A stretch of 64,000 nucleotides of DNA from Porphyridium purpureum (taxonomy: Eukaryota). Numbering within the stretch: position 1 is the first letter of the stretch; each line of letters opens with the position of its first letter. A model generated the notes under the pieces. The model was not told where the DNA came from and searched no databases. It worked only from the letters and a program-made list of their open reading frames with translations. Positions 31,698-64,000 of the stretch are shown here, piece by piece. The position numbers were made by a program, and so were the translations under genes. The stretch covers positions 62,001 through 126,000 of the forward strand of contig VRMN01000002.1 of NCBI GenBank assembly GCA_008690995.1, read 5' to 3'.

Positions 31698-31745
31698 CGG
31701 AAGGATCGAATGGCGTGTCGCTGCGCACAGCCATGCTCGTGCAAT

Positions 31746-31758: not shown

Positions 31759-32055
31759 TGTTGTGGGTTTTAGGGTTTGCCGACATGTTGTAGCACCGCA
31801 GAACATTCTAGATGCTGGTGCTGATGCACGCGTCCTGCGGCGGTAGGCGCTCCTGTGCCCGAGCAGGGAACTTGGTAGTGACGAGATTGCGGCTTTGCGG
31901 GTATAAAAGCGTGCTCTGGCGAGCGACCAGGCGGCGGCGTAATGGAGAAGAAGGGCTACGGATTTAGGGAGTGAAAAGCGTAACTTTGCACTGACGAGTA
32001 TAAATTGTTTGTTTTTTCTTAGACGAACATCTCAGTAGTGACAGAAACCATAACA
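31759..32055 (+). repeat. Copia 3' LTR
   Basis: Direct repeat of 25987-26283, followed by TSD AAGGC. Confidence 0.97.
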
Positions 32056-45428: not shown

Positions 45429-47040
45429 CACAGCGATGGCCAGGCCGAGTCGTACTTTGCGAGCAAGCGTCGACTGTGTAAAGCAGAAATCATTCAGGCT
45501 GCAATTCCAGATCGTATCTTATACTACCGGTAACGGTGGCCATCGGCACGCACCGCGCGCCGACCGCCTGCCGGCGGCGGAGGCCGGGTTGCGCCACATG
45601 TCAAATCGGACCTGGCTATGCAAATTGGGGTAACATCCAGAGCCGCACGCCCAGGCGTCCCATGAGTAAATTCACCGCGCCACCCGCGCACGTGCCGTGA
45701 TTACGCGTGTTGCGGGTGTCGTCGCGCAATCTCTGGATCATCGAGTCGCGACCATTATCATCATGAACCTCTTTAACCTCTGCAAAAGCTTCCTAAAACC
45801 CTCACCTCTCTCGCATAGTCGTCATTTGCCATTCCTTATTCCCCCCTTCCCCGCCTAAAACAAGCAAAGCAACTGGAAAACCTTGTCCCATTTTGGAACG
45901 TTGAAAGGCGGGACGGCTGGAGTGGAGAGGGGTGTGACATGATGTGGCTCTTGTGCAAATGCGCCGGTATCTATCTCTAACCCTGGAGTTGATCATGAAC
46001 GTCACGCGCTCCCGATGTACAAAGAAAAAGAGCGGAGGAGCATGACGGAGGAATAGCAGGCGCGCGCCTCGCGCTCTTCCCGTCATTCCTCTTCCAGCCA
46101 GCCCACACCACGCGCGTGCCCATTGGTTTGGTGCCGCAACTTGCCAAAGTGGGGAAACGTGCATCGTCAATCAAAGATTGAGCGTTGCGCTTGGTTGGTC
46201 AGTCCGTAAGCTGTTTGTCCCGGTAGTCTTGGCTTGGTGGTTCGGGAGGTACAGCTGGATGATTAAAATAATATTGTTTTTTAAACATTGGTCGAACTGG
46301 TTCGCGCGTGTTGGAGAGAGTAAGGTGCGACCAGAACGGATAGGGGACAGTAAAATTTCTAAGAACAATTAGACACTTCATATTAAATTTTGACTTTTTA
46401 CTAGGAACATGATTTGGGGCGGGCGGGTGGTGCCGGCATGCAAGAAATTTGTTGCACAAAACGGATAGGGGACAGTCACGGGAAGCCTTATATCTCGGAA
46501 AGAAATGAAGGAAAGGAAGTGAAGAGACGTGCATCGAGCCAAACTCGTAAAGAGCTTCATTTCGATACCAAAAATCGCAATATTGACCCCTCGGATGAGA
46601 AGATATGACACTTTCAGGGCCTTTGGGAGTGGGACAAAAAGTGAGAGCCATTGTGACATACATTAGGTGCTTTATGCAATGCAATTTATTCTAGGTAGAT
46701 GCTCCCATCGTACACGTACATAGTTTCGCTTCTGCGGACGCTCCAAACCGCACAAAGGCATGAAAAATCAAGATTTATGACATCAAAAGGATTCGGCCCG
46801 TAAATAATGGCCGGCAAATTTGTGCTACACAACGCATTTACCGTGTAATTCAGATCCTAAATTCAATGGCAATCAGGACAGCAATGAGCTTAACCAGTGC
46901 GCGCAGGAGAAATCCAGCTCATGTACCAGTCTGTGTCGTTGAAACGTTATATACTGTACCTATGTAAGGTGAAAAGTGTACTTACACAAGTCGACTATGC
47001 ACGGATATAAGTTGTGTAGACATTATATTTATACCATATA

Positions 47041-48584
47041 CAGTCCTGGCCAAGATGTTTGCAACACCCTCATAAAAAGTGAAATTCGTGTAAAAGTGAA
47101 GAATCTTGATAGACAAGGGCATGTTTTGAGCACGCCAATCGATCGCGCGTCCCAAGAAATACTGGGGCGCGTCCAACCGGGAGGAAAAGGCAAGGAAAGA
47201 GCGCTTGGGCAATGGAGACAGCAAAAAGGGGGTGTTGGCGAGCGGCGCAAGTTTTGGAATGTGAGAAAGAAAACACGAAGATCAAGAAGGATGAGACTTT
47301 AGTACTTGGTGTGGTGGCCGCGCGCGTCCAGTACAGCTTGAAGACGGCGAGGCATGGACTCTAAGAGTGGAACTACGTACTTTTGGGCCACGGTCGCCCA
47401 CGCCGCAAGCACGACAGCCTTAAGTTCTGCGACGCGTGCGAACTGGCGGCCTTTTCGGTAAACCACGCGCGGCAAGACGCCCCAAATGTTTTCAATTGGG
47501 TTAAGGTCCAGAGACCTTGCAGGCCACGGCAGCACAGTGACGCCGAGTGCGTCGAGCCACGCTTTGGTCGAGTTGGCCGTATGTGCCGGGGCATTGTCTT
47601 GCTGGAAAGTGTAATTGAAGTCATACATTTCCAGGCCGAACGGAAGCAAGGCTTCCAGCAAGACTTGTTGATACTTCACGGCATTCAAGCCACCCTCGAC
47701 GAAGACGGCCATTGTTAGGCCGCGCAGGGACATACCGGCCCACATGTGAACCTTGCCACCTCCAGAGTGCTGGCGCCTGGCGTACGAACTTGACTTGGCG
47801 CGACAGTCGACCCATCGCTGCGAGGAGCCGAACGGGCCATCGCAGCTCCAAATCTTCTCGTCTGAAAAGACCACTTGATGCCAGAAAGCCATTGGTTTCG
47901 CAATGAATGCGGTGGCAAACGCCAATCGCTTCCTGATGTTGTCATACGACAGCGAAGGTTTCCGCGAGACTCGCTTGTAGCGAAGAAAGCCTGCTGCTTG
48001 AAGCGTCCGACGCACTGTCCTGGCCGAGCACTGCAAGTGCAGCTCGTGAACCACCTGTCCGGACGTCAGTGCATCAACAGATACGGCGCGAATGATGCGG
48101 CGTTCCGATTTGCAACTCAAAAGCCGTTTCGGACCTGGCTTCTTGCGGACGATCCGGTGCCCCGTTGGCACAAGAAAATGACTGACAGTTGCATAGGATG
48201 GCCGCGAGCGATCTGGGCGCGTCATGAAGCCTTCGCAATTGCTCGTGCCGACAGCTCCTGGCCCGCAAGGGCGTCGATCTGCCCTTTTTCGTGTTCCGAC
48301 AGTCACGGCGCCATCGTTCGGCCGTTGCGCGCTCAATTTCGATCTGGAGACTCTCCACTTGCGCACGACGAGATGGATCAGCGAGCGAAGATCCTTTGAG
48401 CACCTTCTGATGGTCTGGGAAAAACAAAAACGCGCGCGCCGCGCCTTGGTTCATCGTCATGCTCGATGTGGACAATGTTAAAAAAGAGTTAAAAATAAGC
48501 TTTCTATTAAAATGGGCTATTTTACTATAAGATCCATTTTTTTGGACCAAAATGCAGGTGTTGCAAACATCTTGGCCAGGACTG
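47041..48584 (-). mobile_element. Tc1/mariner DNA transposon (DD34E), 1544 bp
   Basis: Perfect 28-bp TIRs CAGTCCTGGCCAAGATGTTTGCAACACC (47041-47068, 48557-48584) flanked by TA. Confidence 0.97.
47299..48314 (-). pseudogene. Tc1-family transposase with disrupted N-terminus
   Basis: FSDEK, FQQDNAPAH, SLDLNPIENIW (34 residues between D and E). The HTH start MAP*LSEHEKGQIDAL (ATG 48314) has a TGA and is out of frame with the core. Confidence 0.85.
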
Positions 48585-48736
48585 TACATGTTCCAGTCTG
48601 ACTCATAAACGTACATTTACGCCTCTTATACGTACAGTATATCCTGCCTTCAAGACATTATATCTGTATATTCTACGCCCTACATACGTATAGTATAAAT
48701 GTGTATTGTTTAGTCATATGTGTACCTTTTTATCAT

Positions 48737-49026
48737 TGTTACCAATGCTGTGCCTTTATTCTCTCTTACCTCTTCTTCTGTCTCCGAGCAAGACCTGACC
48801 GGCTAGTCCGGGCAGGCGCGTCGCCTTTTTATACCCTTACTTCCGCTAGGGACAGCAAGGCGCCAAGAGAAATGACAATGCAAACCATTGGCATTTCTGC
48901 GCGCGTCTAGAAGTTTCTGGAACCTCTAGAAGCTTCTAGAAACGGTTAAACGGTCTGCCGGTTTAACGGCTTACCGGTTTTGGATTAACCGAACCGTTCT
49001 AGGTCACTGGGGTCGAACGGATAACA
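48737..49026 (-). repeat. Gypsy 3' LTR (290 bp)
   Basis: Direct repeat of 53897-54192; differs by a few substitutions and a CT-rich indel patch. Confidence 0.96.
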
Positions 49027-49040
49027 TCTCCCCCCCTCTT
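49027..49040 (-). other. Gypsy polypurine tract
   Basis: Minus strand AAGAGGGGGGGAGA abutting the 3' LTR. Confidence 0.9.
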
Positions 49041-49145
49041 GGCTCGACGTCTCGGCGAGACTCCAAACTAAGTTGCATTCTTGGCTCGAGGAACCCGCGC
49101 TCCGGGAGAAAACATCTGCCTAGCAAACTTCTCACAATACCCAAG

Positions 49146-52100
49146 TCATTCAGAGTCAGACTCTTCGATAATTTTCAACAAGTCTGGCTCTGAATCGGAC
49201 GCTGGCAGGTCGTCGGGTACTTCTTCATCATTTTCCCCTGCCATGTAGTCTTCGCGTCCATAGTATGGCTTCAGATGCTGGATCGGAAAAACATCATGAC
49301 AAGCCACACCCTCAGGCAAAATCACTCGGTAAGCATGCGAGCTTACCTTCTCAATGACAGGCACCGGACCAAGAAACTTTGGTGCCGCCAAATCACTCTT
49401 GTTCGGCCGCAGTTGCGGCGCCGTGACCAACACTTGATCACCAACTTGAAACTCCCGGGCATCCTTGCGTCGATCGAAGAACTTCTGCATTCTCCCCTGG
49501 GCTTCGATCAAATTGTCGCGGACTTCTTCATGGACTTTGCACAGGCGAAACCAGTGCTCCGCCATGTCCTTCGTCTGTCCGTCGCGCGCAGGCGTCCACC
49601 CTTCGCTCGGTGGAAACCAAGGATCCCTTCCATATACCACTTTGAACGGCGCGAATCCAGTGGCACTGCTTGGTGCGGAGTTGTACGCAAACTCGTACAA
49701 CGGCAAGTCTCGTACCCAGCCACTATTCGTCGCCATCAACTTGAGCATTTCCCGAATCACGCGGTTCACTCGCTCAGTTTGGCCATCTGTCTGCGGGTGG
49801 TTGGCGGTAGACATAGCCAACTTCATGCCCACCCGCTTGCTCAACTGCTGCCAAAACGTTGACGTAAACAGCGGATCTCGGTCCGACACAATTGACTTGG
49901 GGTATCCGAAACGGCTCACGACGTGCTTCACGAACAAGTCAGCACAACGCTTTGCTGTCAAGTCCTTGCGCGTCGGGATAAACAGCGTCATCTTCGAATA
50001 GCGATCCACCACAGTCATGATTGCATCACAGCTGCCTTCGCTCCGAGGCAGCTCTGTCACAAAGTCCATCGAGATGTCGACCCAAGGTCCTTCTGGGATC
50101 GACAAGGGCTTCAGCTTTCCAAACGACCGATTCTCTGACTTTGTCACTTGGCATGCGTGACAAGTCTTCACAAAACGGCTCACGTCTCGCTTCATCTTTG
50201 GCCAGTAGAAGCGAGTGATCAAAGATGCATACGTCGTGTCCGCTCCACGGTGCCCTGCTGTCGGGATATCGTGGTGGAGCTGCATGACACGCTCTCTGAA
50301 CTTCCTCGGCACGCAAACGCGATTCCTCAAGTACAAGAGCCCAGCTTCGGTTCGAAAACCTTGGTGGGTCGGTAAATCTCCCATCAAAGTACCAAAGTCT
50401 GGGTCACTCGAGTAAGAACCCACGAATGCCTGGAAACCCATACCAAATTCATCACACCGAACTTGGTACTCTAGCGCGTGCAACTCCGGCTTCCTCGACA
50501 AAGCATCGGCTACCACGTTCGACTTTCCCTTCACATAGTCGATTGTGATATCAAACTCGGCCAAAAAGTCCAACCACCGTGCTTGCCGGCCATTCAGCTC
50601 CTTCTGCGTCATCAAATGTTTCAACGCCTCATGATCTGTGTGAAGCACAAACTTTGCCCCGTACAGATAAGGTCGAAACTCTCGCAGACAATGAATGACG
50701 GCCATGAGCTCTCCTTCATAGCTGCTGTACCTGGTCTCTCGGTCCAGCAGCTTCCTCGACGTAAACGCGACCGGTCTGCCTTCCTGTGCCAGCCATCCCC
50801 CCACCGCGACTTCGGAGCGGTCCGTGTACACCTCAAATGGCTTTTCAGGGTCTGGCAAGGCCAACACCGGCGCTTCCGTCAACATCCCGACAATCTTCTT
50901 GAAGGCGTTCTTGCCTTCATCTCCCAGTTCGATCAGCTGCTTCTTCGACTTTGCGTTCTGCAACAGCGAAGTCAGCGGCGCCACGACGGTAGAGTATCCT
51001 TTGACAAACCTGCGAAACCAGTTTGTCATTCCCAAAAAGGATCTCAACTCTGTCACCGTCTTTGGCACTGGCCAATCTTTCAAAGCTTCCACCTTCCGTG
51101 GATCCATCTTCACGCAACCGTTGCCGACAATGTTCCCCAGGTATTCGACTTCAGAAACGAAGAAGCTGCACTTCTTGCGCTTCAAACGATACCCCGCCTT
51201 TTGCAAGCGCGACAACACTTCCTTCAGGACCTCGCCGTGCGACTGCCGATCCTTGGTAAAGACCAAAATATCGTCCAAGTAGACAATGACGGTCTTGTCC
51301 AGCAGATCTGCAAACAGCTCGTTCATGGCCCTCTGAAAAGTTGCCGGCGCGTTGCAAAGACCAAACGGCATCACACGGAACTCGAACTGTCCGTACCTGG
51401 TCTGGAACGCGGTCTTCGGCACGTCCTCTCTCCGAACACGCAACTGGTGGTATCCCGATGCCAAATCCAACTTTGAGAAACAGTGAGCTGCGCCCAGTCG
51501 ATCCAGCAACTCATCCATGTTCGGCAACGGATACCGGTCCTTCACAGTTGCGTCGTTCAACGCCCGATAATCAACGCACATCCTCATGCTGCCGTCTTTC
51601 TTCTTCACGAACAGCACGGGTGCTCCAAACGGGCTCTGACTCGGCTGGACGAATCCTTTGTCCAGCAAGTCATCCAAAGTCTCTCGGAGGACTTTCAACT
51701 CCGCAGGGCTCAGTCGGTAGACCCTGCCCACTCTCACAGGCTTCTCATCTTTCAGCCTAATCACATGCTCCACTGTTCGGCTCTCAGGCAGCCCTCGCGG
51801 CTCCTCGAACAGATTTTCGAAATCATTGAGCATCTTCTTCACAGAGTCAGCTTCTTTGCGCTCCACTGAACAGGGCTCCTCCCTTCCTTTCAGCACGCCG
51901 AGGTAGCACTCTTCTACCTCCTGACTCTTCAACAGCCGACGGAGCTCTTTCCGCGGCACCAGCATCTGCGTCATGCTCCAGGCCCTCTTCTCTCCGTAGG
52001 CCAACATGCCAGACTGCCAATCAATCACTGGGTTCTCCCGCTTCAGCCACTCCATGCCCAAGATTGCGTCTTGTCCCGCAATCCGGCAAATGGCAAAGTT

Positions 52101-52544
52101 AGCGGTTCCTGAGTACCCATCGCTCAGTGTAAACTTGACATTGGAAACTTCTCCGGCTGTCTCCAATACAGACCCGTCTGCCAGGGTCACATGATCTCTC
52201 TTCCACGACGCCTTCTGCTTCAGGCCGTCGGATTTCAGCACAAAGTCCACGCTCATAAAGTTGTCCGTCGCGCCACTGTCAATCAAAAACGTGGCCTCTC
52301 CATCGGACTTGTGCACTTTTCCGCGAACTCGAAGAAGCATGGCAGCTCCCATCCCTCCAAGTTCCTTGATCACGGGCTGATTTGCGCTCGAGTTTCGCCC
52401 ACAAGGTGTCGGACAGCCAGACCTTGGCTTACCAAGGCCACCACAGCGGTCTCCATTGCCGCCCCTAGAGGTCTCGTAACGTCTGCGAGCCTCCTTTCCC
52501 TCTGACTGTCCGAGGAACCTCTCTACTCGAGCTCCTCGTTTTTT
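49146..52544 (-). CDS. pol: Gypsy Pol, in the -1 frame relative to gag
   Basis: PR LIDSGAT; RT MCVDYRALN, LDLASGYHQ, MPFGLCNAP, YLDDIL; RH; IN HH...GH...CHACQ, SMDFV, IVSDRD, QTDGQTERVN. Confidence 0.97.
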   Translation of the reverse strand, partial: KKRGARVERFLGQSEGKEARRRYETSRGGNGDRCGGLGKPRSGCPTPCGRNSSANQPVIKELGGMGAAMLLRVRGKVHKSDGEATFLIDSGATDNFMSVDFVLKSDGLKQKASWKRDHVTLADGSVLETAGEVSNVKFTLSDGYSGTANFAICRIAGQDAILGMEWLKRENPVIDWQSGMLAYGEKRAWSMTQMLVPRKELRRLLKSQEVEECYLGVLKGREEPCSVERKEADSVKKMLNDFENLFEEPRGLPESRTVEHVIRLKDEKPVRVGRVYRLSPAELKVLRETLDDLLDKGFVQPSQSPFGAPVLFVKKKDGSMRMCVDYRALNDATVKDRYPLPNMDELLDRLGAAHCFSKLDLASGYHQLRVRREDVPKTAFQTRYGQFEFRVMPFGLCNAPATFQRAMNELFADLLDKTVIVYLDDILVFTKDRQSHGEVLKEVLSRLQKAGYRLKRKKCSFFVSEVEYLGNIVGNGCVKMDPRKVEALKDWPVPKTVTELRSFLGMTNWFRRFVKGYSTVVAPLTSLLQNAKSKKQLIELGDEGKNAFKKIVGMLTEAPVLALPDPEKPFEVYTDRSEVAVGGWLAQEGRPVAFTSRKLLDRETRYSSYEGELMAVIHCLREFRPYLYGAKFVLHTDHEALKHLMTQKELNGRQARWLDFLAEFDITIDYVKGKSNVVADALSRKPELHALEYQVRCDEFGMGFQAFVGSYSSDPDFGTLMGDLPTHQGFRTEAGLLYLRNRVCVPRKFRERVMQLHHDIPTAGHRGADTTYASLITRFYWPKMKRDVSRFVKTCHACQVTKSENRSFGKLKPLSIPEGPWVDISMDFVTELPRSEGSCDAIMTVVDRYSKMTLFIPTRKDLTAKRCADLFVKHVVSRFGYPKSIVSDRDPLFTSTFWQQLSKRVGMKLAMSTANHPQTDGQTERVNRVIREMLKLMATNSGWVRDLPLYEFAYNSAPSSATGFAPFKVVYGRDPWFPPSEGWTPARDGQTKDMAEHWFRLCKVHEEVRDNLIEAQGRMQKFFDRRKDAREFQVGDQVLVTAPQLRPNKSDLAAPKFLGPVPVIEKVSSHAYRVILPEGVACHDVFPIQHLKPYYGREDYMAGENDEEVPDDLPASDSEPDLLKIIEESDSE

Positions 52545-53329
52545 GACTCCAGCGAGTCTCCCTCCAGCTGCTGGATAGTCTTCCTTGCCTCGGGACACTT
52601 CCTGGCGATGTGTCCCGGCCTTCCACAATTCCAGCATTTGAGCTCGGTACGAACACGCCTCTGACCCTGCACATGTCCCAGCTCCATCGGGACGGGTCCT
52701 TCCTGCGCTGCGCGACCGAAAAATGGCGTCCTCACACTTGAATCACGCACGCCGCGGGTCGCATGAATGGCGTCGTCCACGACCACCGCCACCTGCGCAG
52801 CCTCCGCAAACGTGCTCACTCCTCGCTTGTACACTTCCAAGCGGACCTCGGGCTTTAGACCCCTCACAAAGCGGTCCATCATTTCTGCGTCCGACAAGTC
52901 CGGAATCACAAGTGCCGCGTCCTGAAAAGCCGCCACATACGCATGGGCCGGGCCTTTCTGCGAAAGACGCGTCAACTTGTCCCTTGCACGCCTGATCGAA
53001 TCCTGCGGCGTGAACCGAGCACTCACGAGGGCAGCAAAATCATTCCACGTCCTGGGGATCTCCTGCGGGTAGAGCTCGCAGTTCAGAACCCACCAATGAA
53101 GCGCCTCTCCCTCGAAATAGTCTGATGCCAAGTCCACAGCACGCCTCTCCGCAAGCAGACGTTTCTCCAAATCGTCCGGGTGGATGCTCTCCAACAACCG
53201 GCCCAAGATCTTCTTTCTCGCCTGGAACAACCACGTCTTCACAACCAGAAGGTCACGCTTCCCGTCGAACCTCATCAGACGGGCCTCCTTCGGGCCACGT
53301 GGTCCCAGCGTCTCCGAATCAATCTCCAT
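52523..53329 (-). CDS. gag: Gypsy Gag with CCHC knuckle
   Basis: TWNDFAALVSARF, LSQKG..AYVAAF, GPVPMELG, CWNCGRPGHIARKC. Confidence 0.95.
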   Translation of the reverse strand: MEIDSETLGPRGPKEARLMRFDGKRDLLVVKTWLFQARKKILGRLLESIHPDDLEKRLLAERRAVDLASDYFEGEALHWWVLNCELYPQEIPRTWNDFAALVSARFTPQDSIRRARDKLTRLSQKGPAHAYVAAFQDAALVIPDLSDAEMMDRFVRGLKPEVRLEVYKRGVSTFAEAAQVAVVVDDAIHATRGVRDSSVRTPFFGRAAQEGPVPMELGHVQGQRRVRTELKCWNCGRPGHIARKCPEARKTIQQLEGDSLESKNEELE

Positions 53330-53879
53330 GCTTTCTGGACTAAAGCACGTTCAACGATCACGACAACACGAACAGCAAGCCTCCGATGCTCACTTTCTCC
53401 AACAGCTGCGCGAACCACAAACGGGCTCGGTCGCCCTCACGAACACAAACCGACACACGAAGCTGTCCTCTCACGCACACACACGCACAGCAATCTTCTC
53501 ACGTACACACGACAAAGCGCACAGCAATCCTCCTCTGTTGCGCTGGATGGGGAGCGGCCCGGGCCTTTGCACTGGGGCGGGGATTATAGATGCGATCTTG
53601 TATGGAGGTGTTCGGCGCCTACCTTCGCAAAGGTGGTCGTGCGACACTAGGATGAATCCTAGTGAAGGCTGACCGTTACGGCTCTTGCCTACTAATACGT
53701 GCTAAGGCAGAGAGCGAGTCCGCCGTCAAGGCCTAGGCCTATCGTACAGCCAAGACTGAGACCCGCTTCCACCCGTCGCACCCTCCGGATCGACTTACTC
53801 GAACCCCCTTACCCGCAGACTCTCCCACCCAGGCAACCCCGGAGAAGCTCTAAGAGAACCTTAGAGCAACCCCAGGTAA

Positions 53880-53894
53880 CCAGCGATGATACCA
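53880..53894 (-). other. Gypsy primer-binding site (initiator tRNA-Met type)
   Basis: TGGTATCATCGCTGG, 2 nt after the 5' LTR. Confidence 0.85.
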
Positions 53895-53896
53895 AA

Positions 53897-54192
53897 TGTT
53901 ACCAATGCTGTGCCTTTTACTCTGCTTCTTCTTCTTACCTCCTCCGTCTCCGAGCAAGACCTGACCGGCTAGTCCGGGCAGGCGCGTCGCCTTTTTATAC
54001 CCTTACTTCCGCCAGGGACAGCAAGGCGCCAAGAGAAATGACAATGCAAATCATTGGCATTTCTGCGCGCGTCTAGAAGGTTCTGGAACCTCTAGAAGCT
54101 TCTAGAAACGGTTAAACGGTCTGCCGGTTTAACGGCTTACCGGTTTTGGATTAACCGAACCGTTCTAGGTGGCTGGGGTCGAACGGATAACA
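53897..54192 (-). repeat. Gypsy 5' LTR (296 bp)
   Basis: Followed by PBS on the minus strand; TATAAAA at 53993-53999 (minus). Confidence 0.96.
54075..54108. promoter_or_regulatory. Two perfect three-unit heat-shock elements in gypsy U3
   Basis: AGAAG-GTTCT-GGAAC and AGAAG-CTTCT-AGAAA match nGAAn-nTTCn-nGAAn; copy at 48909-48942. Confidence 0.7.
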
Positions 54193-54397
54193 ATCATTGG
54201 TTCACGGTTTATGTTTGTCAAGTATAAGCGTACATACATGACTTCTGTATTTACATAAAGGGATATATATGCGTATGGTATATAGTACATGAAAACGTCT
54301 AGTATATTTATAGTATATTGATGAAATATATACGGACCAACACGGCTTTTAGTGGATTGCTATACTATGACGTATGCACAGAGACTGCAATCGTGCG

Positions 54398-54628
54398 ACA
54401 AGCACCGAAGAAAACAGACAATACGCACGACAAACACAGCGAGCAATAACGCAGTCGTACAACAAGCACCGAAGAAAACAGACAGGAAGCAGGACAAACA
54501 CAGCGAGCAAGAACGCAGTCGTACAACAAGCACCGAAGAAAACAGACAATACGCACGACAAACACAGCGAGCGAGAACACAGGCATACGACAAGCACCGA
54601 AAGAAACAGACAAGAAGCACGACAAACA
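54398..54628. repeat. Tandem repeat, 64-bp unit, about 3.6 copies
   Basis: ACAAGCACCGAA(G/A)... recurs at 54398, 54462, 54526 and 54590. Confidence 0.93.
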
Positions 54629-54781
54629 TGGTACGTGAATAAAAAAATCAAAAGTCAGAGGGTTGTCCGTACGGAAATGCTCGAGCCAAGAGGACTGGTA
54701 TGGCGTTCCGAAACTGATGTGTACCAACGTACCAAACGCGTGACATGCACATTCAGAGATACTTCGAGGTACCTCTGTTCA

Positions 54782-56659
54782 TCAGTCGTCCAAAAGCCGC
54801 GCGTCGACAACAGTCGCAAGACCACTCTTGATGGTGGTTTCATTGTCGGGATCGAGCGAAAGTCGCGTACGCGAAGATAGGGATGAGTCGCTCATTTGTC
54901 CGTTCATCTCCTCCAGCGTTTTCATCAGGTCCATGTTCTTCTGTGCGGTACCGCGATCAAGCACCTGCAGCTTCATGCGAATTTGTTCAAGCTGCATGAC
55001 GACTTTCTCGTGCCCGATCGGGATTTCGCACGTCGTATTTGCGAACGCAGACCATTCAATTGGGGTATCCCAAGGCCATTCAATGGTTCTCTGTGCGGGC
55101 ATCGGTGTATCGTGTACACGAATGTATTCCTCTCCGTCGCATTCTACCTCTGCGCTTCGAGACCCGGTATCGGACTGCAACGCGCACGCTACAGTTCTTA
55201 GGATCTCCATGCAGATGATCTCGTAGCGCATCAAGCAACGGATTGCCTCACGTGACAAGCCGTACGGTGATGCCTCAGTGGCTGTGGTCGCGGCATATGC
55301 CTGCAATGGCGTTGGCGCGTGCGCTTGCAATCGTCCGTGGGTCGTACGGCTACGAGGCCAAAAAGGATTGCTTGGTTTCGAAACGCACAAAGCAAGAATT
55401 CCGTGTACAATGACTTTTACAAGCTTCTTCCTCCACTTCATCACAATTTGGTCGTGTGACGAGAACAGGCTTCGCACCTTGTGGAGTTCGAATGCCTTCG
55501 CGATTGCCGGGTACCCGAACACCTGCTTCACCATGTCCACGGCTCCACTCGTTCCGGTACCGGGATCAATCTGAAATGTGTGATGAAACATTTCATGCAT
55601 TGCGCTCCTTGCGCGGCGTACCATGATCTGCAGAACAGCGCGCAAGGTGAACCGCAATTCCCGGAGTACTCCTTTCGCCTTGTCCAAATCGCTGTGCATG
55701 TCCATGAAGTTCTCTGAACTTGAGCACAACGAGGTACCTCCAGCTTTGAGCGCACACAGCAACTCGAACGTTTCGAGCGGAGGGACCACAGAGCTGCCGC
55801 TCTCGGAACCCGCGTCCCAAGTCTTGCGTGCATTCTCGAAGTAGTATGGACTGGTACCAGAGCAGAGGGGCAAGAGTCCGGTACGGAACAAATTGCGCGT
55901 TGACATGTCGCACACCGAACCACGTGACCGACGCAGTTGGCTCGGCCTTGGTTCCATCGCATCAACATTGCCGTGCGGCTCTGTTTCTGTTCGTGTGATA
56001 TCCGCGTGTGCGCCCGATGTGTCGTGCGACGAGCCATCTTGCACATTCCTTGCACCACTCACAGCACTACGCCCAGCATTCGACAGCTCACCGTCAATAT
56101 GCGGGGTACCCCTCTGCATTAGAGCGGATTGTAAGGTCTCCGACGCAAGCGGATCGCCCGGTGCGTTACGAGCGCTTTGTGGTTCCTCTGTTGCGCGTGC
56201 GCGTTCATCCTGCGCTGCTGTATTTGTCCTCGCTGCGGTGTCCGCACTCTCGCAGCTGTCCAGCCTTGATACCAAACCCGTATTACTTTGCGGTACTGCT
56301 ACTACGTCAACTGTCTGTCGACCACCCGCAAGTCGGTTTGATCGCGACGAGCTACTTGTATTCGAGTGCGCATCATCCACCTGTGCAAGTCCGGTACCAG
56401 GATGATCTTTCGCAGTCTGTGATCCCGTTCGCTGGGCAGTACTGCATGCCAGGGCAAGCATACGCTGCCGCGTGGCCTCATACGGCTCGCTCCTCTTCTC
56501 GATCGAGACAGAGGTACTCAAAGACCCGCCGACCTCGCCTCCGGACGTGCGTGCCCTTTTTTTCCGGCCCACCGTACCCGCATCAGCCTCCGCTGCCTTC
56601 GTGGAAGGTTTGCGCGTACGCGTTTTGGAGCCGGGCGTACCCGCGTGTTCCTGTTCCAT
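54782..56659 (-). CDS. Orphan protein: NLS and disordered N-half, helical C-half; probable transposon accessory gene
   Basis: Long ORF (693 aa from 56863; likely ATG 56659); RKKRAR; no family recognised. Confidence 0.7.
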   Translation of the reverse strand: MEQEHAGTPGSKTRTRKPSTKAAEADAGTVGRKKRARTSGGEVGGSLSTSVSIEKRSEPYEATRQRMLALACSTAQRTGSQTAKDHPGTGLAQVDDAHSNTSSSSRSNRLAGGRQTVDVVAVPQSNTGLVSRLDSCESADTAARTNTAAQDERARATEEPQSARNAPGDPLASETLQSALMQRGTPHIDGELSNAGRSAVSGARNVQDGSSHDTSGAHADITRTETEPHGNVDAMEPRPSQLRRSRGSVCDMSTRNLFRTGLLPLCSGTSPYYFENARKTWDAGSESGSSVVPPLETFELLCALKAGGTSLCSSSENFMDMHSDLDKAKGVLRELRFTLRAVLQIMVRRARSAMHEMFHHTFQIDPGTGTSGAVDMVKQVFGYPAIAKAFELHKVRSLFSSHDQIVMKWRKKLVKVIVHGILALCVSKPSNPFWPRSRTTHGRLQAHAPTPLQAYAATTATEASPYGLSREAIRCLMRYEIICMEILRTVACALQSDTGSRSAEVECDGEEYIRVHDTPMPAQRTIEWPWDTPIEWSAFANTTCEIPIGHEKVVMQLEQIRMKLQVLDRGTAQKNMDLMKTLEEMNGQMSDSSLSSRTRLSLDPDNETTIKSGLATVVDARLLDD

Positions 56660-57130
56660 CTGCCCGGACACCGACGCCTGCCTCCTACACCGCCCCTTTC
56701 GTCGACCAACGCGCAACACTTGTCGCTCGACTCTGCGTCGATCCTGGCCTTCGAGCCATGCGCGGCAGAGGCGTATGCCCGTCCAGGTCCCTAGATATGT
56801 AGGAAAACATTCCCTTTTGATACGAAAACATATACAATACACTCGGTTTCTTCTGTACAGCATGTATCAAAACGCACTATGTTTCATATAAAGTACGCAC
56901 GAAACCACACGTGAAACCGAAAAAGAGCCTATGTTCCTGGGAAAAAAAGGCGCGCTCAAAGCAGAAACAGGGGTGTACCCTAGGGCCCCGGTGCCCAGTG
57001 CTTCAAAATATGTAAGCTTTACGCGCACAACTTCGCGTGCGCGCGCGGAGTTGCCTGACTTTGTGTGTGCGCAGAGGTGACAGAGCTCTCGTGCGAGTCG
57101 ATTGGGGAGCTGGAGTAGTTGGGTGCAAGA

Positions 57131-58174
57131 ATGGGCAGCGTTCAAGGAGCGAGAGGCGTGATCCATTCATTGCTGTACAGCGTCGTAGAGCGTCTGGATG
57201 ACTGTGCCGCACGGCTCGACAGGATGCGTGCTACGGTTGGCCGGCATTTAGAGATGCTGGGCGACTCGGACGAGACAGATCACGTACGTGCAGATGAGGA
57301 AGCACTCGCTCAACGTGAAGCACACTCACAGGTACCTGCAGAAGAAGAGTCTGAGAGAACGAGGAGCAACAGCCCTATGCGCAGGCGCAAGTTGCGAAAG
57401 GTCGGGGAAGCAGGTCGCGTACGTGTCGATGGCGGCGAGCGCATGAATCGCGTACGCGTTGAAGAAAGCGAACGTGCGAAGCGTGCAGAAAAGCGCACAC
57501 GCGTCAAAGATGGAAACAGTACGAAGCGCGTACGCGATGATGGCAAAGACCAGTCTGTGAGGCGCGCACGCGATGAAGGAGATGCCCGTCGGCTCGATGC
57601 GCTTAGGAGTGCAATCGAGGCTATAACCAGCGGTGACGCGAAGCACCTAAAAATGTACATCCCTTGCAGGACTCTGGACGTCGTGTGCAAAGCTGAACAG
57701 CAGATTTGGTGGCCTGCAAATGTGGTCGTGGACGAGCGTCAGATTCCTGCGTCTGTTAAACGATTGCGAGAGCAAATTCGCGCACGCGTAGGTGAAGAGG
57801 TTGCATTGGCTGCCGTACGGTACTATCCTGTCACCCGCAGAGAATGGGGCATTGTACGCGTCGTCCCGGAGAAGTTCATTCCTATTGAAGTTTTTAAGCA
57901 GAATGCCTTTGCTGTACAGCGATACCACATTTGGGACAGTATTCCTGCTGCGATGAGCGAAGCCTTCAGTGAAGCATTCCTGAGCACGTGCGAGGAAAGG
58001 GACGATGGATATGCTCTCGCACGAGACGTCATAAGCAGTGCGCGACTACCAGGGGCGTCTGAGGTGCGCCGCAACATTTCTGACCATGCGCATAGCCACG
58101 TGGATTTGGAACATCGTGTACACGATCTTAATACATATCATAGCCAGTTTTCTTCATCATCAAGTGAGCATTAA
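57131..58174 (+). CDS. PWWP-domain protein
   Basis: LDVVCKAEQQIWWPANVV...VRYYP...EWGIV...KFIPI followed by helix EAFSEAF; basic N-terminal region RRRKLRK. Confidence 0.65.
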   Translation: MGSVQGARGVIHSLLYSVVERLDDCAARLDRMRATVGRHLEMLGDSDETDHVRADEEALAQREAHSQVPAEEESERTRSNSPMRRRKLRKVGEAGRVRVDGGERMNRVRVEESERAKRAEKRTRVKDGNSTKRVRDDGKDQSVRRARDEGDARRLDALRSAIEAITSGDAKHLKMYIPCRTLDVVCKAEQQIWWPANVVVDERQIPASVKRLREQIRARVGEEVALAAVRYYPVTRREWGIVRVVPEKFIPIEVFKQNAFAVQRYHIWDSIPAAMSEAFSEAFLSTCEERDDGYALARDVISSARLPGASEVRRNISDHAHSHVDLEHRVHDLNTYHSQFSSSSSEH

Positions 58175-58278
58175 ACGGGTACCCGCGTGGGCACGTTATT
58201 GAGCCGAACATTTCATATCGCTCGGAAGTTTCAGTCATGCGCGTCGGATCTGTGGCGTCTGTGATCAGCGCGTGCGCG

Positions 58279-59175
58279 TCATTCGTCGTCTGCTGTGGAA
58301 GAGATGACAGCTTGTATAAGATCTTCTGGTTCCGAGAGAATACTTGCACTTGCTTGCGTACGCAGAGATGCTCGCAGATGTCGATGCTCAGGTGTCTGTG
58401 GGCTTGACTGTGGCGGTGTCGCAACGAAAATGGTGGGCCCTCTGTCACGGCTATCTCCACCCGGCAACCGGTCAGCTGGTACCAGACGTTGTTGGACAAC
58501 TTCGGATTGAACCAGGTGGTCAACACCGCCGTACTCTTGTAGGCATGTGTGAACAGCATACGCGTCCAACGCGAACACCGGCGGTTCTGCCCAGCGATAC
58601 TTTCTGCGGCCGTACGGCAAGGCTTGTCCACCAGTATCTTTCTCGAACAGCTTGCTGGCCGTCCACTGATGTTGAAGCTGACACCACGCCAGCCACATGC
58701 GCTCGTCCAATTCGGGTACCCGCAACGGTCCATCCTCAGGGTACAACGCGGTCTCGAAGACTGTCACCGAAAGCGCGGCACATTCTAGTGCGAGTTCCCA
58801 GAATTCAAACGCGTATACCAAACGCCTGTACTTAATGTCATCTACCGACGCGATGCTGCCTTCCCCGAATGGCTTATCATTGAGGATTCTTCCATGATAC
58901 TGGGGGTACCCCTGGTAACTGCGATTCGGAGCCTGCAAGCGCGCAATGTCGTACCCTGGTACTTTGTCCAGGATATCCTTGGAGCGCATACGCCACATCT
59001 GTCGCGCGACCGCTCTTGTACAGTCCGAGAATATCGTCCAGTCTCTCTCCGTTAAGCGAAAGAAGTCACGCACCGCTGGTATGGAATAAGCGCGTACGCG
59101 AGGCAGAAACGACCCGACCAAGCCGCGGTCCCATGCCCAATAGTGCGTGGACAACAGAGCCGGATCAACATCCAT
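58279..59175 (-). CDS. Orphan Trp-rich protein (paralog A)
   Basis: Intact ORF; shares motifs with the divergent gene at 59516. Confidence 0.7.
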   Translation of the reverse strand: MDVDPALLSTHYWAWDRGLVGSFLPRVRAYSIPAVRDFFRLTERDWTIFSDCTRAVARQMWRMRSKDILDKVPGYDIARLQAPNRSYQGYPQYHGRILNDKPFGEGSIASVDDIKYRRLVYAFEFWELALECAALSVTVFETALYPEDGPLRVPELDERMWLAWCQLQHQWTASKLFEKDTGGQALPYGRRKYRWAEPPVFALDAYAVHTCLQEYGGVDHLVQSEVVQQRLVPADRLPGGDSRDRGPTIFVATPPQSSPQTPEHRHLRASLRTQASASILSEPEDLIQAVISSTADDE

Positions 59176-59515
59176 TTCGTGCTCCGTCCAATTGGCGTGC
59201 GCCCTTTTCCCCGAAACCCCAATATCCTGCTTCCTGCCCTCTTCCCCGAAACTCCAACAACATGCTTCCAACCCTCCCGTTTCCAAAGCCTCGTCACATG
59301 CGCACGTACGTGTCTGCGCTTTCTGTCACACCCTCGACGGCCGCACCGATTGCTCGCAAGCATTTGAACATCGGCGACACAGACATTGGAGTTCATGCGC
59401 AGAGTATTTACATGTTCAAGCAGAGGCGAGTGCGTGAGTGAAGCATTTCGTGTACGCGAAAGGAATTGCGGTGCACAGGCTGGTACGCGTACGCGACACT
59501 TGACAATCTGACAGG

Positions 59516-60805
59516 ATGGCAGAGCGTGCGCTGGACAGCCCTAGGCGGCGGGATGTATCGGTTGGAGTCGCGCGCCGAGAGCTCATCGACCTGCTGAGCA
59601 AGCAGCGCGGTGTCGGATACGACCGGGAGCTCCAGCGGCTCGCAATGGGTGAGCCGCTCTCGTACGAGGAATAGACCGTTTTGCACCGGGTAACAGCCAT
59701 GCACTTCATCTTCAGTAGGTACAACACGATGCATGGCTCGGATCTTGCATACGCCCAAAAGCTGCAAGTTCAGTACGCTGGTTCCGGGCACCTGCGTACT
59801 CCTGAATTGGGCTGCGGCTGGCCGCACGGCAGACGAGCACGAGGCGCAGTACGCCATTATCCCGAGAAGACCTCGGCGTACTGGATTTGGTCGCTCGCAC
59901 GAGTCTGTGCACGGCGTGCCGTACGGCGAGATTTGCGTTTCCGTGGCGTCGACGTCGACGACGCAGATGCTGCGTCGAATTTCTCGAACGAGTACGACCT
60001 GGAACCAGTCGAAAAGGAGAATATCCTTTGGTACGCGTGGTGCATGTTCAATCACGCGTACGCGTCAAGTCACGCCTTTGAGAAGGTCGATCCAGGTACC
60101 AGGGAGCAGCCATTCTGTGACACACCGTTAGGCTCTCCGTTGCAATTGAGTGCGGTACCGCTTTCGTATTCAACTATGTGGATGCCGCGACTTATTGCAG
60201 ACTATGCCGTACGGCCCACAGATCCCGAATGGATTGTGCTGGTCCTCAACCGGTTCGTCGCACAGGCCGACATCACGAACGTGGTCGAGCCGCAATTGGG
60301 CGACCTGGCCAACCCAACGTACGTCCGTGAACTCCAGAAACAGCCTCTGGACCCAGGCGAAGGATCGTTGAGGCTCGTACGTGCATAGCTGCGCATGGAG
60401 CGTAGCCTGCAGGCGTTTCAAACGCGGGAGGCTGAGGTACCTCTGCATGGGAGCACACACGTGGTGGATCTCTTCGAGCCTCAGGGCCATGAGACGGCGA
60501 TCGGCGAGCAACAGCCAACGGAAGGATGGCCGTCTTTTCAGACGTTCCTGCCGCACGGCTACTTTGATGCTCTGGGCTTGTACAAGGGACCAGAAGACAT
60601 GCGCAACGTGCGCGGCTTCAGCGATACCGCTAATCATCCAAGTGCTCTCTTTCGGACGCGCGACAGATTCGGAGAAGAAGGCAGGATGGCGGCGACAGGT
60701 GCGTATCAGCCGAGCCTCCGCCTCGCGCACGCGCTTTCAGTCAGGAGCACAGGAACGCGTACGCGACAATACACAAGATGTCCCAGACATCGATTACGGG
60801 ACTGA
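59516..60805 (+). pseudogene. Orphan paralog B with two in-frame TAG stops
   Basis: ATG 59516 and ORFs 59681-60388 and 60395-60805 are all one frame, broken by TAG 59672-59674 and TAG 60386-60388. Confidence 0.65.
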
Positions 60806-60983
60806 GTGGGGCGAGATCCCTTGAAAGCGAGCCGCGGCGACTGCGGGGCCTGTCGATGCAGCACGTCGTACGACAGATGGCGAAGGGAGTCCACGCATTC
60901 CACGATTCCGAAGAGCTTCTGAGTTTGGTCATGATGACCAACGGGACCCGAAGATTCGCCGTACGGTAACTACGGGAGTTCCT

Positions 60984-61694
60984 GTGCAGGCACGCGCACA
61001 GCATATGCATGCTTTTCCTCCGCGGACGCCTGGATCCGTGCGGCGCCCAGAAAATGAGGGCGTAGTTGAGGTATCTTCCTGGGGTTACCGGGCATCCGCG
61101 CGTAGGCCGAGGCCCATGTATGATGAACGCGTGCGCGTTTCGCAGGGCACCGAACCGTTTTATCGTCATGTTTTGAGACCCGTACTATCGCCTGGGGTAC
61201 CCCCTCTGTATGGACAGGGCTCAAGGCCGTACGATGAGCCCGTCGAGTGGCCATACGAAAGATGGCCTGCACCAGTGCAGGCCCAAGACTATGCGGTGCC
61301 CTTTGCAAGCACGCGTGCACCGATGTATGCACCTGTTCGTGCACGCGCATTGCATGAAGTACCAGATGAGACTGCGCTTTGGGAAGCATTGCAGCGGCAA
61401 GAGTATGATCCGCATGCACGGACGTACGTCAGATCTCCAGGCACCTGGCATGAAGCAGGTGCTTCTTCGCACATGCCTCCTGGAGGATGGCCCCAACCCG
61501 CACGGGCGCCTGCCGCGTACGAAAGGTCTTTCGGGTACGAAAGGCCTCCTCGCTACGAGAGACCTTGGCCAGCGCAACGTGTACACGAGAATCCGGTTGG
61601 GTACGACAGTTCATCCTTTCCATTGCGCTTTCGTGTACACGATGTTCCCACCGGGTATGAAAGGCAGCATCTGCCCCCCTGCACACGGACTTGA
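60984..61694 (+). CDS. Pro/Tyr/Arg-rich ORF (YERP-like repeats); possibly the C-terminal part of the 59516 gene
   Basis: PYERWP, AYERSF, GYERPP, RYERPW, GYERQ. Confidence 0.45.
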   Translation: MQARAQHMHAFPPRTPGSVRRPENEGVVEVSSWGYRASARRPRPMYDERVRVSQGTEPFYRHVLRPVLSPGVPPLYGQGSRPYDEPVEWPYERWPAPVQAQDYAVPFASTRAPMYAPVRARALHEVPDETALWEALQRQEYDPHARTYVRSPGTWHEAGASSHMPPGGWPQPARAPAAYERSFGYERPPRYERPWPAQRVHENPVGYDSSSFPLRFRVHDVPTGYERQHLPPCTRT

Positions 61695-61939
61695 ACCAGC
61701 CGGATAAACGCACGTGCATGACGCTTCGGGTCATTCGTTTCACGGTAGCGTCTCTGATTTACCATCGGGTCAGCCGACAGACGAACAGATGTACATCAAT
61801 CCAGAGCATGAGCCGGAAGCGTCTGACCCTGCGAGCTGGAGCTTGCACTAGTTGTGAGCTGTACAGCATGTGCTTGCTGTAGACGCTGCTCAGAGATGTT
61901 TGTTGTCGAATAAACGACGTACGTCCTTGTTTCCACACT

Positions 61940-64000
61940 TTACGCCCACAACTCTATACCATCGAATATATCGGGTCGTAGAATGAACCACCACCTAGCA
62001 GGTACCTGTTCATCAACACCTGCACGCCCAATACCACAGCGCGAAGCGCATTGAGATGAAGAAGCATACGCTTCACCTGGATCAAGAGCGGTACCGCTAT
62101 TGTAAGTATCCAGAAAGGCTGTAATCTTGCAACGGAGCTGCGACGCAAGCACAATTTTGACTTCATCGTCTTCACGTACGTGATCAAAAATGCCTCGTAA
62201 GTGTGTACATACTGTCGCGCCACCACGGCTCCGAGGCACACGCTCTACTTTCAAGTGTCGTACGATGGCGATATCCTGTACAGACGGCATACCCTGCACA
62301 GGGTCCCGTGGTAATACTCCTTTCGTCTGGATTGGATGTACATCAACGTCGATTGTCCCAATCAAGACGAGACGGGCATATCGAAGACGCTGACGTACGT
62401 CATCCCAATACTGAATAAAGTCATACCTTTCCTTGCCGTAGTAGTCCCAGTACGCAACAAAGCGCTCACTCTGCATGTTCGCATGGTTGTGCCGCACGGC
62501 GATACGAGGCGTATAGCACACCTTATACTCTTGCTCGTACGAGTTTTGCATTTCATCCGACATCCATGTGCGCCGACCCTTCTGAACGTGATGCGTAAGT
62601 GAGTCCCACACCGTGACTGCTTCTTTCATGGTCGATGTACATCCAACTGACGCTGAGACCGTGTGTGTAGTGCTTGGAAACGAAGGCATCGCCGTCACTT
62701 GAAAAGACCATTCATCTGTCGATCGCGCACGGACACAGGTCCAGGAGTAGACAATCCCTTCCGGCCACGACCCCGTGCATACCACATCTTCCGGTACTGG
62801 AGCTGCTCTAAACTCTAAAGGATGTGTCGGTTCACCGATTCCATGGTCGTGCGACATTGACGGGATGCGCTCTGCCGGATCTAAAAGTAAGCTACTGATG
62901 TCTGCAAGATCGAATCGCTCATGCTGTTCAAGCATGTATCTATGCGGTACCGCCAGATTTACGCCAGCCACTTTTCTGTGCACCCTTTTGCATATGCGCA
63001 TGAGAGACTCGCTTGTACAAGTGTCGTGTAATCGCTTGCGCCCGAACTCCTCCAGATCTTTGCACAGATGCAAGAGCGCATGAAGTTTTGGCGCATCCCA
63101 AACAATTCCCGTCAAGTACTTGAGCTGCTGTATCTTATCCATGAGACTCGATACTAGATCTCTTCCTTCACGTACGTGTGCATCTGTTGGTCGAGCAAGA
63201 GACATCTTCGCGTACACGGATAAGGCTTGACAACACGTGATAAGATACACTGCTTTCCAGGCAGGGCCCATGGTCTTGTAATATCCATCGCAGGCGACAG
63301 CCACAATGACTTGTACAAGTAGTCCTGGCGAGTACTTATTCTCCACCATCTTGGACAACTGCTCGAACGGATTTGGCGTACGTCGGATCGGAATGTATAC
63401 TCCGGAAGAACGTGATAGACGCTCACGATCTTGTACCGTGCTGATTACAACCAAGCACTTGCCCAATGCAGAGTTACGAATGCGTGTAATGTTGTCAGCC
63501 GTTCGGCGTCCACCACTTACCTTTCGGCGTTTCTTTTGTCGTGTGGTACCACCATCATCACCGTCACTCGTTTCCGAGGAGGTGATCTCGTCACTGTCAA
63601 TTTCCATATCTTGCCCGAACCCAGACGCGTCGAGTTGCGCCACGGAAGCTGTTCCGCGTATGCGTCTGTCTTGTGCGTACCGGTCCAGAATGTACAAGGC
63701 TATGTTTGCCAGTTGACGGAGTATTCCAAGCTTGAAGCCATGCATCCAGTCCACACCAACGAGTGCAAAGAGACCGCGTTTATCCCAACGATTGAGGTAC
63801 CTCGCTTTTGCACCTGGAATATGGCGTATATTATATTTTGCACGCTGCCTGGCAGCACCTCCGCCCGACTGCTCAGCTATCGCAAACATGGGCTCTTCTT
63901 CGCGGTACTCAAAGCTCGTGTACGCGTTGAATGCCTCAGATCCAGGAACAAGACATACTTGACAGGGCCGCTCCTGAGTCATACGCGAGTTCAACGTAAC
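61940..64000 (-). CDS. Plavaka/CACTA(CMC)-like DDE transposase, C-terminal part (5' end beyond window)
   Basis: PCQVC, VDWMHGFKLGI, PKLHALLHLCKDLEEFG...TCTSES...K, ERYDFI, RYARLVLI. These match the D.MH...LG / PK.H...H....FG...T...E motif series of this transposase group. Confidence 0.75.
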   Translation of the reverse strand, partial: VTLNSRMTQERPCQVCLVPGSEAFNAYTSFEYREEEPMFAIAEQSGGGAARQRAKYNIRHIPGAKARYLNRWDKRGLFALVGVDWMHGFKLGILRQLANIALYILDRYAQDRRIRGTASVAQLDASGFGQDMEIDSDEITSSETSDGDDGGTTRQKKRRKVSGGRRTADNITRIRNSALGKCLVVISTVQDRERLSRSSGVYIPIRRTPNPFEQLSKMVENKYSPGLLVQVIVAVACDGYYKTMGPAWKAVYLITCCQALSVYAKMSLARPTDAHVREGRDLVSSLMDKIQQLKYLTGIVWDAPKLHALLHLCKDLEEFGRKRLHDTCTSESLMRICKRVHRKVAGVNLAVPHRYMLEQHERFDLADISSLLLDPAERIPSMSHDHGIGEPTHPLEFRAAPVPEDVVCTGSWPEGIVYSWTCVRARSTDEWSFQVTAMPSFPSTTHTVSASVGCTSTMKEAVTVWDSLTHHVQKGRRTWMSDEMQNSYEQEYKVCYTPRIAVRHNHANMQSERFVAYWDYYGKERYDFIQYWDDVRQRLRYARLVLIGTIDVDVHPIQTKGVLPRDPVQGMPSVQDIAIVRHLKVERVPRSRGGATVCTHLRGIFDHVREDDEVKIVLASQLRCKITAFLDTYNSGTALDPGEAYASSSQCASRCGIGRAGVDEQVPARWWFILRPDIFDGIELWA

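Follow-up and report, generated by a model that had tools for sequence, protein, structure and literature searches.

What kind of DNA occupies the right-hand part of a 64,000-nucleotide stretch of the Porphyridium purpureum genome (GCA_008690995.1, contig VRMN01000002.1, positions 62,001 to 126,000; hereafter the window), and why is it strewn with short palindromes centered on GTAC? The block has its probable left end at position 46927, runs past the right edge at 64000, and carries a DDE transposase together with four accessory genes, here called A to D. Most likely it is a cut-and-paste transposon of the CMCT clade, and the explanation that we favor for the palindromes, if tentatively, is that selection maintains them as a self-recognition mark for a protein that the element itself encodes. 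Giant cargo-carrying transposons are already known from algae, and the palindrome array is the surprising part; statistically it is unambiguous.

An earlier description of this DNA, made from the letters alone (the sequence-only reading), had called the block rich in GTAC and CGTACG by eye, and counting bears this out. From 54001 on, each 2 kb holds 22 to 27 GTAC compared with 3 to 13 elsewhere, and the density is 12.5/kb in 54198-64000 versus 3.7/kb in 1-46926. The excess is due to perfect 10-bp palindromes of the form NNN-GTAC-N'N'N', which are dispersed over 54666-63926 (59 perfect and 67 one-mismatch sites). The block has 123 GTAC sites, and 59 of them sit at the center of a perfect palindrome of at least 10 bp; in host DNA 3 of 175 do (Fisher p = 7e-24), and in a Gypsy retrotransposon nested within the element none of the 16 GTAC sites is a 10-bp palindrome. 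Among the other 15 palindromic 4-bp cores in the block, none shows such enrichment. Most of the perfect sites are exactly 10 bp long (n = 49), with nine of 12 bp and one of 14 bp; pairing between the arms is 0.65, 0.63, and 0.63 at positions 3 to 5 and drops to 0.22, the background value, from position 6. The arms themselves vary, with 23 different ones present, and the outer pair is C or G in 57 of 59 sites. Sites with one mismatch are also in excess (67 versus about 14 by chance). In 47 of them the mismatch lies in the core (9.2 expected), 24 of these being GCAC/GTGC, and in 20 it lies in an arm (4.8 expected), showing that the arms are better kept than the cores.

Sites are present in all five genes, in every codon phase, and between genes, with 110 of the 133 listed sites in gene bodies. 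The five genes contain 11, 7, 6, 4, and 14 perfect sites, compared with means of 0.3 to 1.0 and maxima of 2 to 6 in synonymous shuffles. The terminal 730 bp of the element, which lie in three pieces, have no perfect site among 10 GTAC occurrences, nor does a 64-bp tandem array located there contain one. Three simple sources of such a pattern were considered and rejected: a mutation process resembling repeat-induced point mutation does not fit since CpA/TpG is undepleted and the high-copy Gypsy lacks the signal; codon bias does not fit since the excess persists under synonymous shuffling; and a fixed binding motif is not compatible with the diversity of the arms. No direct-repeat signature was detected beside the palindrome sites.

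The perfect sites also avoid one another. The smallest gap between them is 46 bp, where 12.0 shorter gaps would be expected at random. When the perfect labels were permuted among the 126 sites, 8.2 gaps below 46 bp were expected and none of 20,000 permutations was free of them, and drawing 59 sites from 118 real GTAC positions matched the observed minimum once in 10,000. With a 40-bp threshold the permutation p is 0.0009, or 0.017 for a stricter site set. Perfect and one-mismatch sites do lie within 46 bp of each other, and the sites show no periodicity (score 17.5; null 95th percentile 35).

How old the array is, and how widely it is shared, was judged from proteins only. The window transposase contains 35 four-residue words that could encode a palindrome and its paralogue FVE85_7762 contains 32, versus 19 in mismatched-arm controls, and none of 200 controls reaches either count (0 and 1 of 200 in a repeat run). 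Among 16 cores, GTAC ranks first in six of six close relatives and in none of ten distant transposases, in which no other core stands out either (best z 2.1, 16 cores each). Two fragments with 42-48% identity, P0010 and P0011, also have GTAC as their best core, weakly (19 and 18 of 200 controls match), a hint that one more lineage may share the array. When 32 perfect sites from three genes were compared with the paralogue, 17 fit the same palindrome, 6 fit the same arms with a GCAC/GTGC core, 2 fell in gaps, and 7 fit none; not one of the 32 needs different arms. Since the paralogue fits the same palindromes or arms at most sites, the array predates the split between the subfamilies. The palindromes also shape the protein sequences of the element, and the words HVRE, QVPA, DVHP, and GGTS recur because of them. 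Seventeen palindrome-capable words are identical in both subfamilies, and the window DNA behind them forms a perfect palindrome in 14 cases and misses one by a single base in 3; the same test on host and retrotransposon open reading frames (ORFs) gave 1 perfect and 7 one base off (n = 84). Within the conserved words, 3 changes were counted in about 44 synonymous sites.

This toggling of the core between GTAC and GCAC/GTGC while the arms are kept, seen at 24 sites in the window and at 6 of 32 in the paralogue proteins, would be expected if the sites were targets of a DNA-modifying enzyme, for example a PAG2-like adenine methylase encoded in the unseen right part of the element or by gene D, whose modification of the central TA would mark the element and raise mutation there. 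Putative N6-adenine methylases are indeed carried by red algal Plavaka and Ectocarpus Sola elements. We nevertheless consider this explanation improbable: the cargo in the window has no methylase domain, a methylase that reads sequence has no need of symmetric free arms, and the GTAC sites of the host are not palindromic.

What, then, could keep the arms symmetric? Because they vary freely yet stay symmetric, a reader would test symmetry or structure and not a fixed sequence. Free arms around a fixed center are what structure-reading proteins select for. Under the self-recognition reading, the recognized structure would be a 3-bp stem with a GTAC-type loop and an outer G-C pair. The reader, which would be one of the cargo proteins, might occupy sites about every 50 to 150 bp with a footprint near 46 bp, coating the body of the element but not its terminal 730 bp, which would stay open to the transposase. 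Together with the PWWP cargo protein and a BAH-like domain of the transposase, it could keep the element out of silent chromatin, by analogy with what VANC does for VANDAL elements. The weakest parts of this proposal are which cargo protein would be the reader and how the sites would have originated, probably by a one-step copying event and not by stepwise point mutation. In its boldest form, which seems to us possible though doubtful, the lineage would write and maintain a symmetry-based self code over its whole body: a factor encoded by the element would create or recognize any 10-bp GTAC-centered palindrome, whatever its arms, keep sites at least 46 bp apart, and so override codon and amino acid choice in all the genes.

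A number of observations weigh against selection for such a mark. The argument from synonymous sites holds only if dS on each branch reaches 0.2 (p 0.02, compared with 0.35 at a dS of 0.1), and dS is not measurable here. Amino acid identity at perfect sites is 0.84, 0.80, and 0.54, about what survivorship predicts (the square root of 0.74, 0.59, and 0.40), so the proteins show no extra constraint at the sites. The sites make up 14% of the sequence and contain 4 of the 12 residue differences between near-identical copies (p 0.08 when tested for an excess), and are thus not visibly protected. The N-terminal 405 residues of the transposase have no significant trace of the array (9 versus 6.5; 40 of 200 controls match). 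The 46-bp threshold was taken from the data themselves, and the stricter site set, which gives p 0.0004 at 46 bp, gives p 0.27 at 30 bp. A 3-bp stem is unstable unaided, and G.U pairs are not preferred on the sense strand (6 versus 10 A.C), which makes hairpins in mRNA unlikely and points to the DNA level. Finally, no reader or writer protein could be picked out, with A, C, and D having no family or fold and the PWWP domain no PDB sequence match.

These points bear on a second explanation, in which the palindromes are functionless scars: a reaction restricted to the element would have written 5-nt inverted copies in an ancestor, and the sites would now be decaying. Hairpin formation and opening by a RAG-like transposase, or fold-back fill-in at GT/AC, each with length-neutral repair, are examples of such a route. 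The counts speak for it, as the 59 perfect sites and the excesses of about 53 one-mismatch and about 21 two-mismatch sites match what Poisson decay would leave at a mean of roughly 0.9 changes in each site, and the lack of extra amino acid constraint agrees with this. The sharp 10-bp limit and the equal pairing at three arm positions look enzymatic, the closest solved structures to the transposase are the hairpin-forming RAG1 and Transib, and writing in one step would account for more than 100 sites arising in coding DNA. Neutral decay, however, leaves unexplained both the absence of perfect pairs within 46 bp and the better preservation of arms than of cores. That no site needs different arms in the paralogue gives no sign of ongoing rewriting, and the ten related transposases without any trace also argue against the scars. 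Hairpin footprints normally alter length, yet the two subfamily transposases (window and FVE85_7762) align without internal gaps. On balance we judge the scars unlikely and keep self-recognition as the tentative explanation.

The identification of the block as a transposon rests first on the ORF at 61940-64000 on the minus strand, which encodes the 3' 686 codons of a 1,091-residue protein whose 405 N-terminal codons lie to the right of the window. The sequence-only reading had taken it for a transposase, and the motifs it pointed to are present (DWMHGFKLG and PKLHALLH...FG...T..E), as is the RNase H-like DDE fold that a transposase should have. An AlphaFold model (pLDDT 55) has RAG1 as its top Foldseek match (E 3.6e-4), and in VIA comparisons it aligns over 368 residues with RAG1 (Z 12.3, rmsd 4.9) and HzTransib (Z 12.2, rmsd 5.4). 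Residues 808-1074 form a C-terminal domain resembling the BAH domains of ZMET2, ORC1, and DNMT1 (VIA Z 8-9). A profile search of 1.84 billion representatives returned 13 matches, and the 10 that were looked up comprise four from P. purpureum, five from JGI metagenomes, and one Logan fragment. Conserved throughout the family are D297, D397, C418xxC421, D489xxH492, P709-K710-x-H712xxxH716, and E736; C418xxC421 is kept in 11 of 11 rows covering it and H712xxxH716 in 15 of 16. From this conservation we infer that D297, D397, and E736 are catalytic. A PDB sequence search of the transposase gave nothing significant. Elsewhere in P. purpureum there are at least three further subfamilies of this transposase, two of them in three near-identical copies each and all annotated as hypothetical, and JGI metagenomes contain four full-length relatives along with partial ones.

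Which transposon lineage this is follows from the domains and, in part, from the ends. As defined in PMC12730594, the CMCT clade combines a RAG1/Transib-type DDE domain with C(2)C and H(3-4)H motifs; both are found here, as are copies dispersed as a unit. Clade members have 5'-CA..TG-3' ends, terminal inverted repeats, and target duplications of 2-5 bp, and the probable left end here begins CAGTC, the right end lying outside the window. The narrower label of Plavaka/CACTA, given in the sequence-only reading, could not be kept. In 17 of 17 family members Pfam gives no match at E up to 10, including to Plavaka (PF18759) and Transposase_21, and the probable end CAGTC suits neither group. According to the same source, the ends are TGT for PlavakaA (in full TGT..ACA), CATCA for PlavakaB (CATCA..TGATG), and CAC for EnSpm. 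At the probable left end the 5'-CA start would be shared with the clade, and CAGTC falls outside the listed lineage ends CAC, TGT, and CATCA. Neither the Transposase_21 domain nor the CAC(TA) ends of EnSpm/CACTA were found. Because the two Plavaka features tested are lacking, namely the Pfam domain and the ends (the latter only if 46927 is the natural end), we file the element under CMCT only.

The earlier proposal of a DNA element exceeding 10 kb, with several genes that recur together, is upheld by copies on other P. purpureum contigs; the genes are multi-copy and not single-copy. The transposase, gene A, and the PWWP gene (gene B) have 99-100% identical copies on one other contig of 1.85 Mb, and diverged paralogues in the same order, FVE85_7758, FVE85_7759, and FVE85_7762, lie together on a 379-kb contig. 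For the transposase these are a 99% copy and the 74% paralogue FVE85_7762; for the PWWP gene, FVE85_2720 (99%) and FVE85_7759 (41%); and for gene A, FVE85_2719 (100% over the searched region) and FVE85_7758, with FVE85_9542 (64%) on a fourth contig. The tags 7758 to 7762 leave two genes between the PWWP gene and the transposase, matching the layout in the window, and we infer that these two, likely FVE85_7760 and FVE85_7761, correspond to genes C and D, whose exact sequences the protein collection does not contain. In three DNA runs the body of the element has a summed contig depth about 2-4 times that of the flank, a value that is not a copy number and that fits several copies. No related loci were found in scans of metagenome and viral contigs. 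Of the words sampled from 54200-64000, at least half were found in each of 16 runs under six organism labels plus a marine-metagenome label, the organism labels probably being strains, synonyms, or co-cultures.

The left end probably lies further left than first supposed. The sequence-only reading had placed it at the TA-rich tract at 54198, which proves to be the edge of the nested Gypsy inside an AT-rich terminal region, and the tract is the right-hand part of that region, which a full Gypsy and a Tc1 element have split. The first AT-rich terminal piece (46927-47040) starts 5'-CAGTCTGTGTCG. It is followed by a Tc1/mariner element on the minus strand (47041-48584; inverted ends, DDE_3 and HTH_Tnp_Tc3_2 domains, TA duplicated), a second AT-rich piece (48587-48736), into which contigs run directly from 47042 in four of four runs, and the full-length Gypsy long terminal repeat (LTR) retrotransposon, also on the minus strand (48737-54192; Pfam gag, RT, RH, and INT domains, LTRs 97% identical, ATCAT duplicated). 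Both insertions are outside the element proper. The third piece (54198-54665) comprises the TA-rich tract and the 64-bp tandem array, found as described at 54387-54628 in 3.8 copies. Contigs free of Gypsy and contigs free of Tc1 are present in all three DNA runs compared, with the Tc1-free joint 47038>48585 and the Gypsy-free joint 48731>54193 each found in runs X1, X2, and X4. Without the nested insertions the element measures 10,067 bp in the window, and with the 405 further transposase codons to the right it is at least 11.3 kb long. The Gypsy gag/pol frames (49149-53350) overlap in different frames, implying a frameshift, and its depth exceeds 100 times that of the flank in DNA runs.

To the left, this copy sits in a separate multi-copy repeat (46322-46926), which is flank and not element and which has many different flanks before 46320-46322. 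In other copies this repeat reads on as GCTGACAC after 46927, and it diverges from the window sequence at that point in four of four runs. A contig of run X1 spans the window junction at 46927, and alternative left neighbors were seen before 46927 (run X2) and before 46931 (X4 and X7). Three distinct left neighbors thus join one sequence within 4 bp, at the CA start, where one neighbor was listed per run among the matches listed. We therefore regard 46927 as the likely left end of the element, starting CAGTC. The junction at 46923-46927 directly follows GTAC in the target, and the other two left neighbors end in ACAT and ATAC, giving no clear target rule. A 20-base pattern from the left end had two metagenome matches, neither otherwise similar to the window or its proteins, which we attribute to chance. 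The repeat itself (46322-46927) is non-coding and probably a non-autonomous DNA element. Its left end, which follows TA, is sharp and present in very high copy, and 20 bp of this end recur inside the repeat (46332 and 46457).

Could the block instead be immobile, a cluster of domesticated genes spread by segmental duplication, or else belong to a larger composite that begins at 46322? The right end lies beyond the window, and neither it nor a target-site duplication was seen; only one left neighbor is listed per run, though the depth of the terminal piece suggests 1.5-2.7 copies; and this copy has E297 in its transposase and a broken gene D. Set against these are the three left neighbors meeting at the CA start, the gene order kept with the transposase in the 74%-identical subfamily on another contig, the several other multi-copy subfamilies of the transposase in the same genome, and a palindrome trace spanning exactly the five genes. 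An immobile cluster accordingly seems very improbable, and mobility by cut-and-paste through an intact copy is very likely, judging from the sequences. The window copy carries E297, where the other 10 of the 11 rows covering this position have D. Its gene D (59516, plus strand) is broken by TAG at 59672 and 60386 and TGA at 60803, and runs X2, X4, and X8 have 2 extra bases at 60738. Because of E297 and the broken gene D, the window copy is probably non-autonomous.

The cargo genes are arranged in the two divergent pairs described earlier, which start at 56659 (minus) with 57131 (plus) and at 59175 (minus) with 59516 (plus). Gene A (54782-56659, minus strand) encodes 625 residues from the ATG at 56659, although the database copies start at an upstream ATG and have 693; its N terminus looks disordered, its C-terminal 350 residues are conserved, and it has no match in Pfam, PHROG, or PDB and belongs to no known family. 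Gene B (57131-58174, plus strand; 347 residues) encodes a divergent PWWP domain (PF00855). The PWWP domain proposed earlier is supported in the paralogue FVE85_7759, which matches the family above the cut-off (E 1.4e-7, 32.4 bits; cut-off 25.6), and less directly in the window protein, which scores below it (E 0.012, 16.5 bits) and aligns to FVE85_7759 across the domain. By eye, against what we take to be the consensus of the aromatic cage, KAEQQIWWPA retains the Trp and has Gln at the first cage aromatic. Gene C (58279-59175, minus strand) is an open frame for a 298-residue orphan with no Pfam or PHROG match, and its single-sequence structure model (pLDDT 35) was unusable. Gene D (59516-61694, plus strand, 3' end uncertain) is interrupted by more than one stop and by one or more frameshifts and, read with X at the stops, matches no family in Pfam or PHROG. 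Genes A and C share no homology, and Pfam finds no TET/JBP, SET, or methylase domain among the cargo inside the window. Contigs of the RNA run X8 cover gene A without any difference (54572-56728) as well as gene C (58003-59258), and were set aside as evidence of transcription because the flank and the Gypsy are covered too. A scan of the window for bacterial promoters was at chance level.

Abundant short palindromes are known from prokaryotes, namely HIP1 of cyanobacteria, which also lies within genes, REP elements, and the attC sites of integrons, which are read by structure and vary in sequence. HIP1 is a fixed sequence found genome-wide and REPs are longer and extragenic, and to our knowledge none of the three is confined to one eukaryotic transposon lineage. 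The literature searched (few subscription papers, no Repbase Reports) yielded no account of a transposon with free-arm palindromes scattered along it.

Several eukaryotic elements share other features with the one described here. Giant Plavaka (EnSpm/CMCT) elements are known from Bostrychia and other red seaweeds, and are reported there only for Bangiophyceae and Florideophyceae (bioRxiv 10.1101/2025.02.11.637652). They too are red algal DDE transposons of over 10 kb in the same clade, with accessory genes linked to chromatin or DNA, a repeat array beside the cargo, and a proposed self-binding. Their cargo consists of PAG1-3 (N6-adenine methylase and SET; ParB and 2OG oxygenase), none of which was detected here; inside the window, genes A to D have no PAG1-3-type Pfam match, PAG1 and PAG3 having no Pfam domain. 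Their repeats are local tandem inverted repeats, whereas those here are dispersed free-arm palindromes in coding DNA, and the main text of that paper contains neither the string "palindrom" nor the name Porphyridium. Other CMCT elements (PMC12730594) resemble this one in their DDE core with its C(2)C and H(3-4)H motifs and RAG1/Transib fold, and differ in the TET/JBP cargo, which was not seen here. VANDAL elements of Arabidopsis with their VANC proteins (PMC5735166) likewise have dense, element-specific short motifs and extra genes traveling with the transposase. Those elements are Mutator-like, and the VANC motif has a fixed sequence without palindromic symmetry (YAGTATTAY), lies mainly in non-coding DNA, and has multiplied through tandem duplication; the sites here are dense and element-specific as well, but they are free-armed, symmetric, mostly coding, and over-dispersed, with no fixed motif in non-coding tandem repeats. 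The giant EnSpm, KDZ, and Sola elements of Ectocarpus (PMC12477816) also exceed 10 kb, carry orphan accessory genes and nested unrelated transposons, and often have one broken gene per copy, but their cargo is different and no palindrome array is described in that text ("palindrom" occurs 0 times).

The present element has its own measurable DNA signature in the form of over 100 palindromes with free arms, which shape its proteins and are missing from the genes of the host and from the nested transposons. Regardless of whether they are read or were only written, the palindromes indicate a DNA transaction that we have not found described, and a symmetry-based self code, if true, would be a new kind of self/non-self DNA marking, read by symmetry and not by sequence. 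Porphyridium is transformable. With near-identical recent copies and sites that can be removed by synonymous recoding, this host allows a direct test of whether a giant transposon recognizes itself. The element further shows that CMCT transposons with cargo occur in a unicellular red alga, which belongs to neither of the two classes named for Plavaka.

Two further features of the window lie away from the element. A full Copia retrotransposon at 25987-32055 has LTRs that are 99% identical and an AAGGC duplication; its ORFs (26232-27521 and 27525-31694) are in one frame, split by a single TGA followed by CGG, which is either read-through or a recent nonsense change. At 6459-16378, three long PPR/TPR-like ORFs cluster around a UDP-glycosyltransferase.

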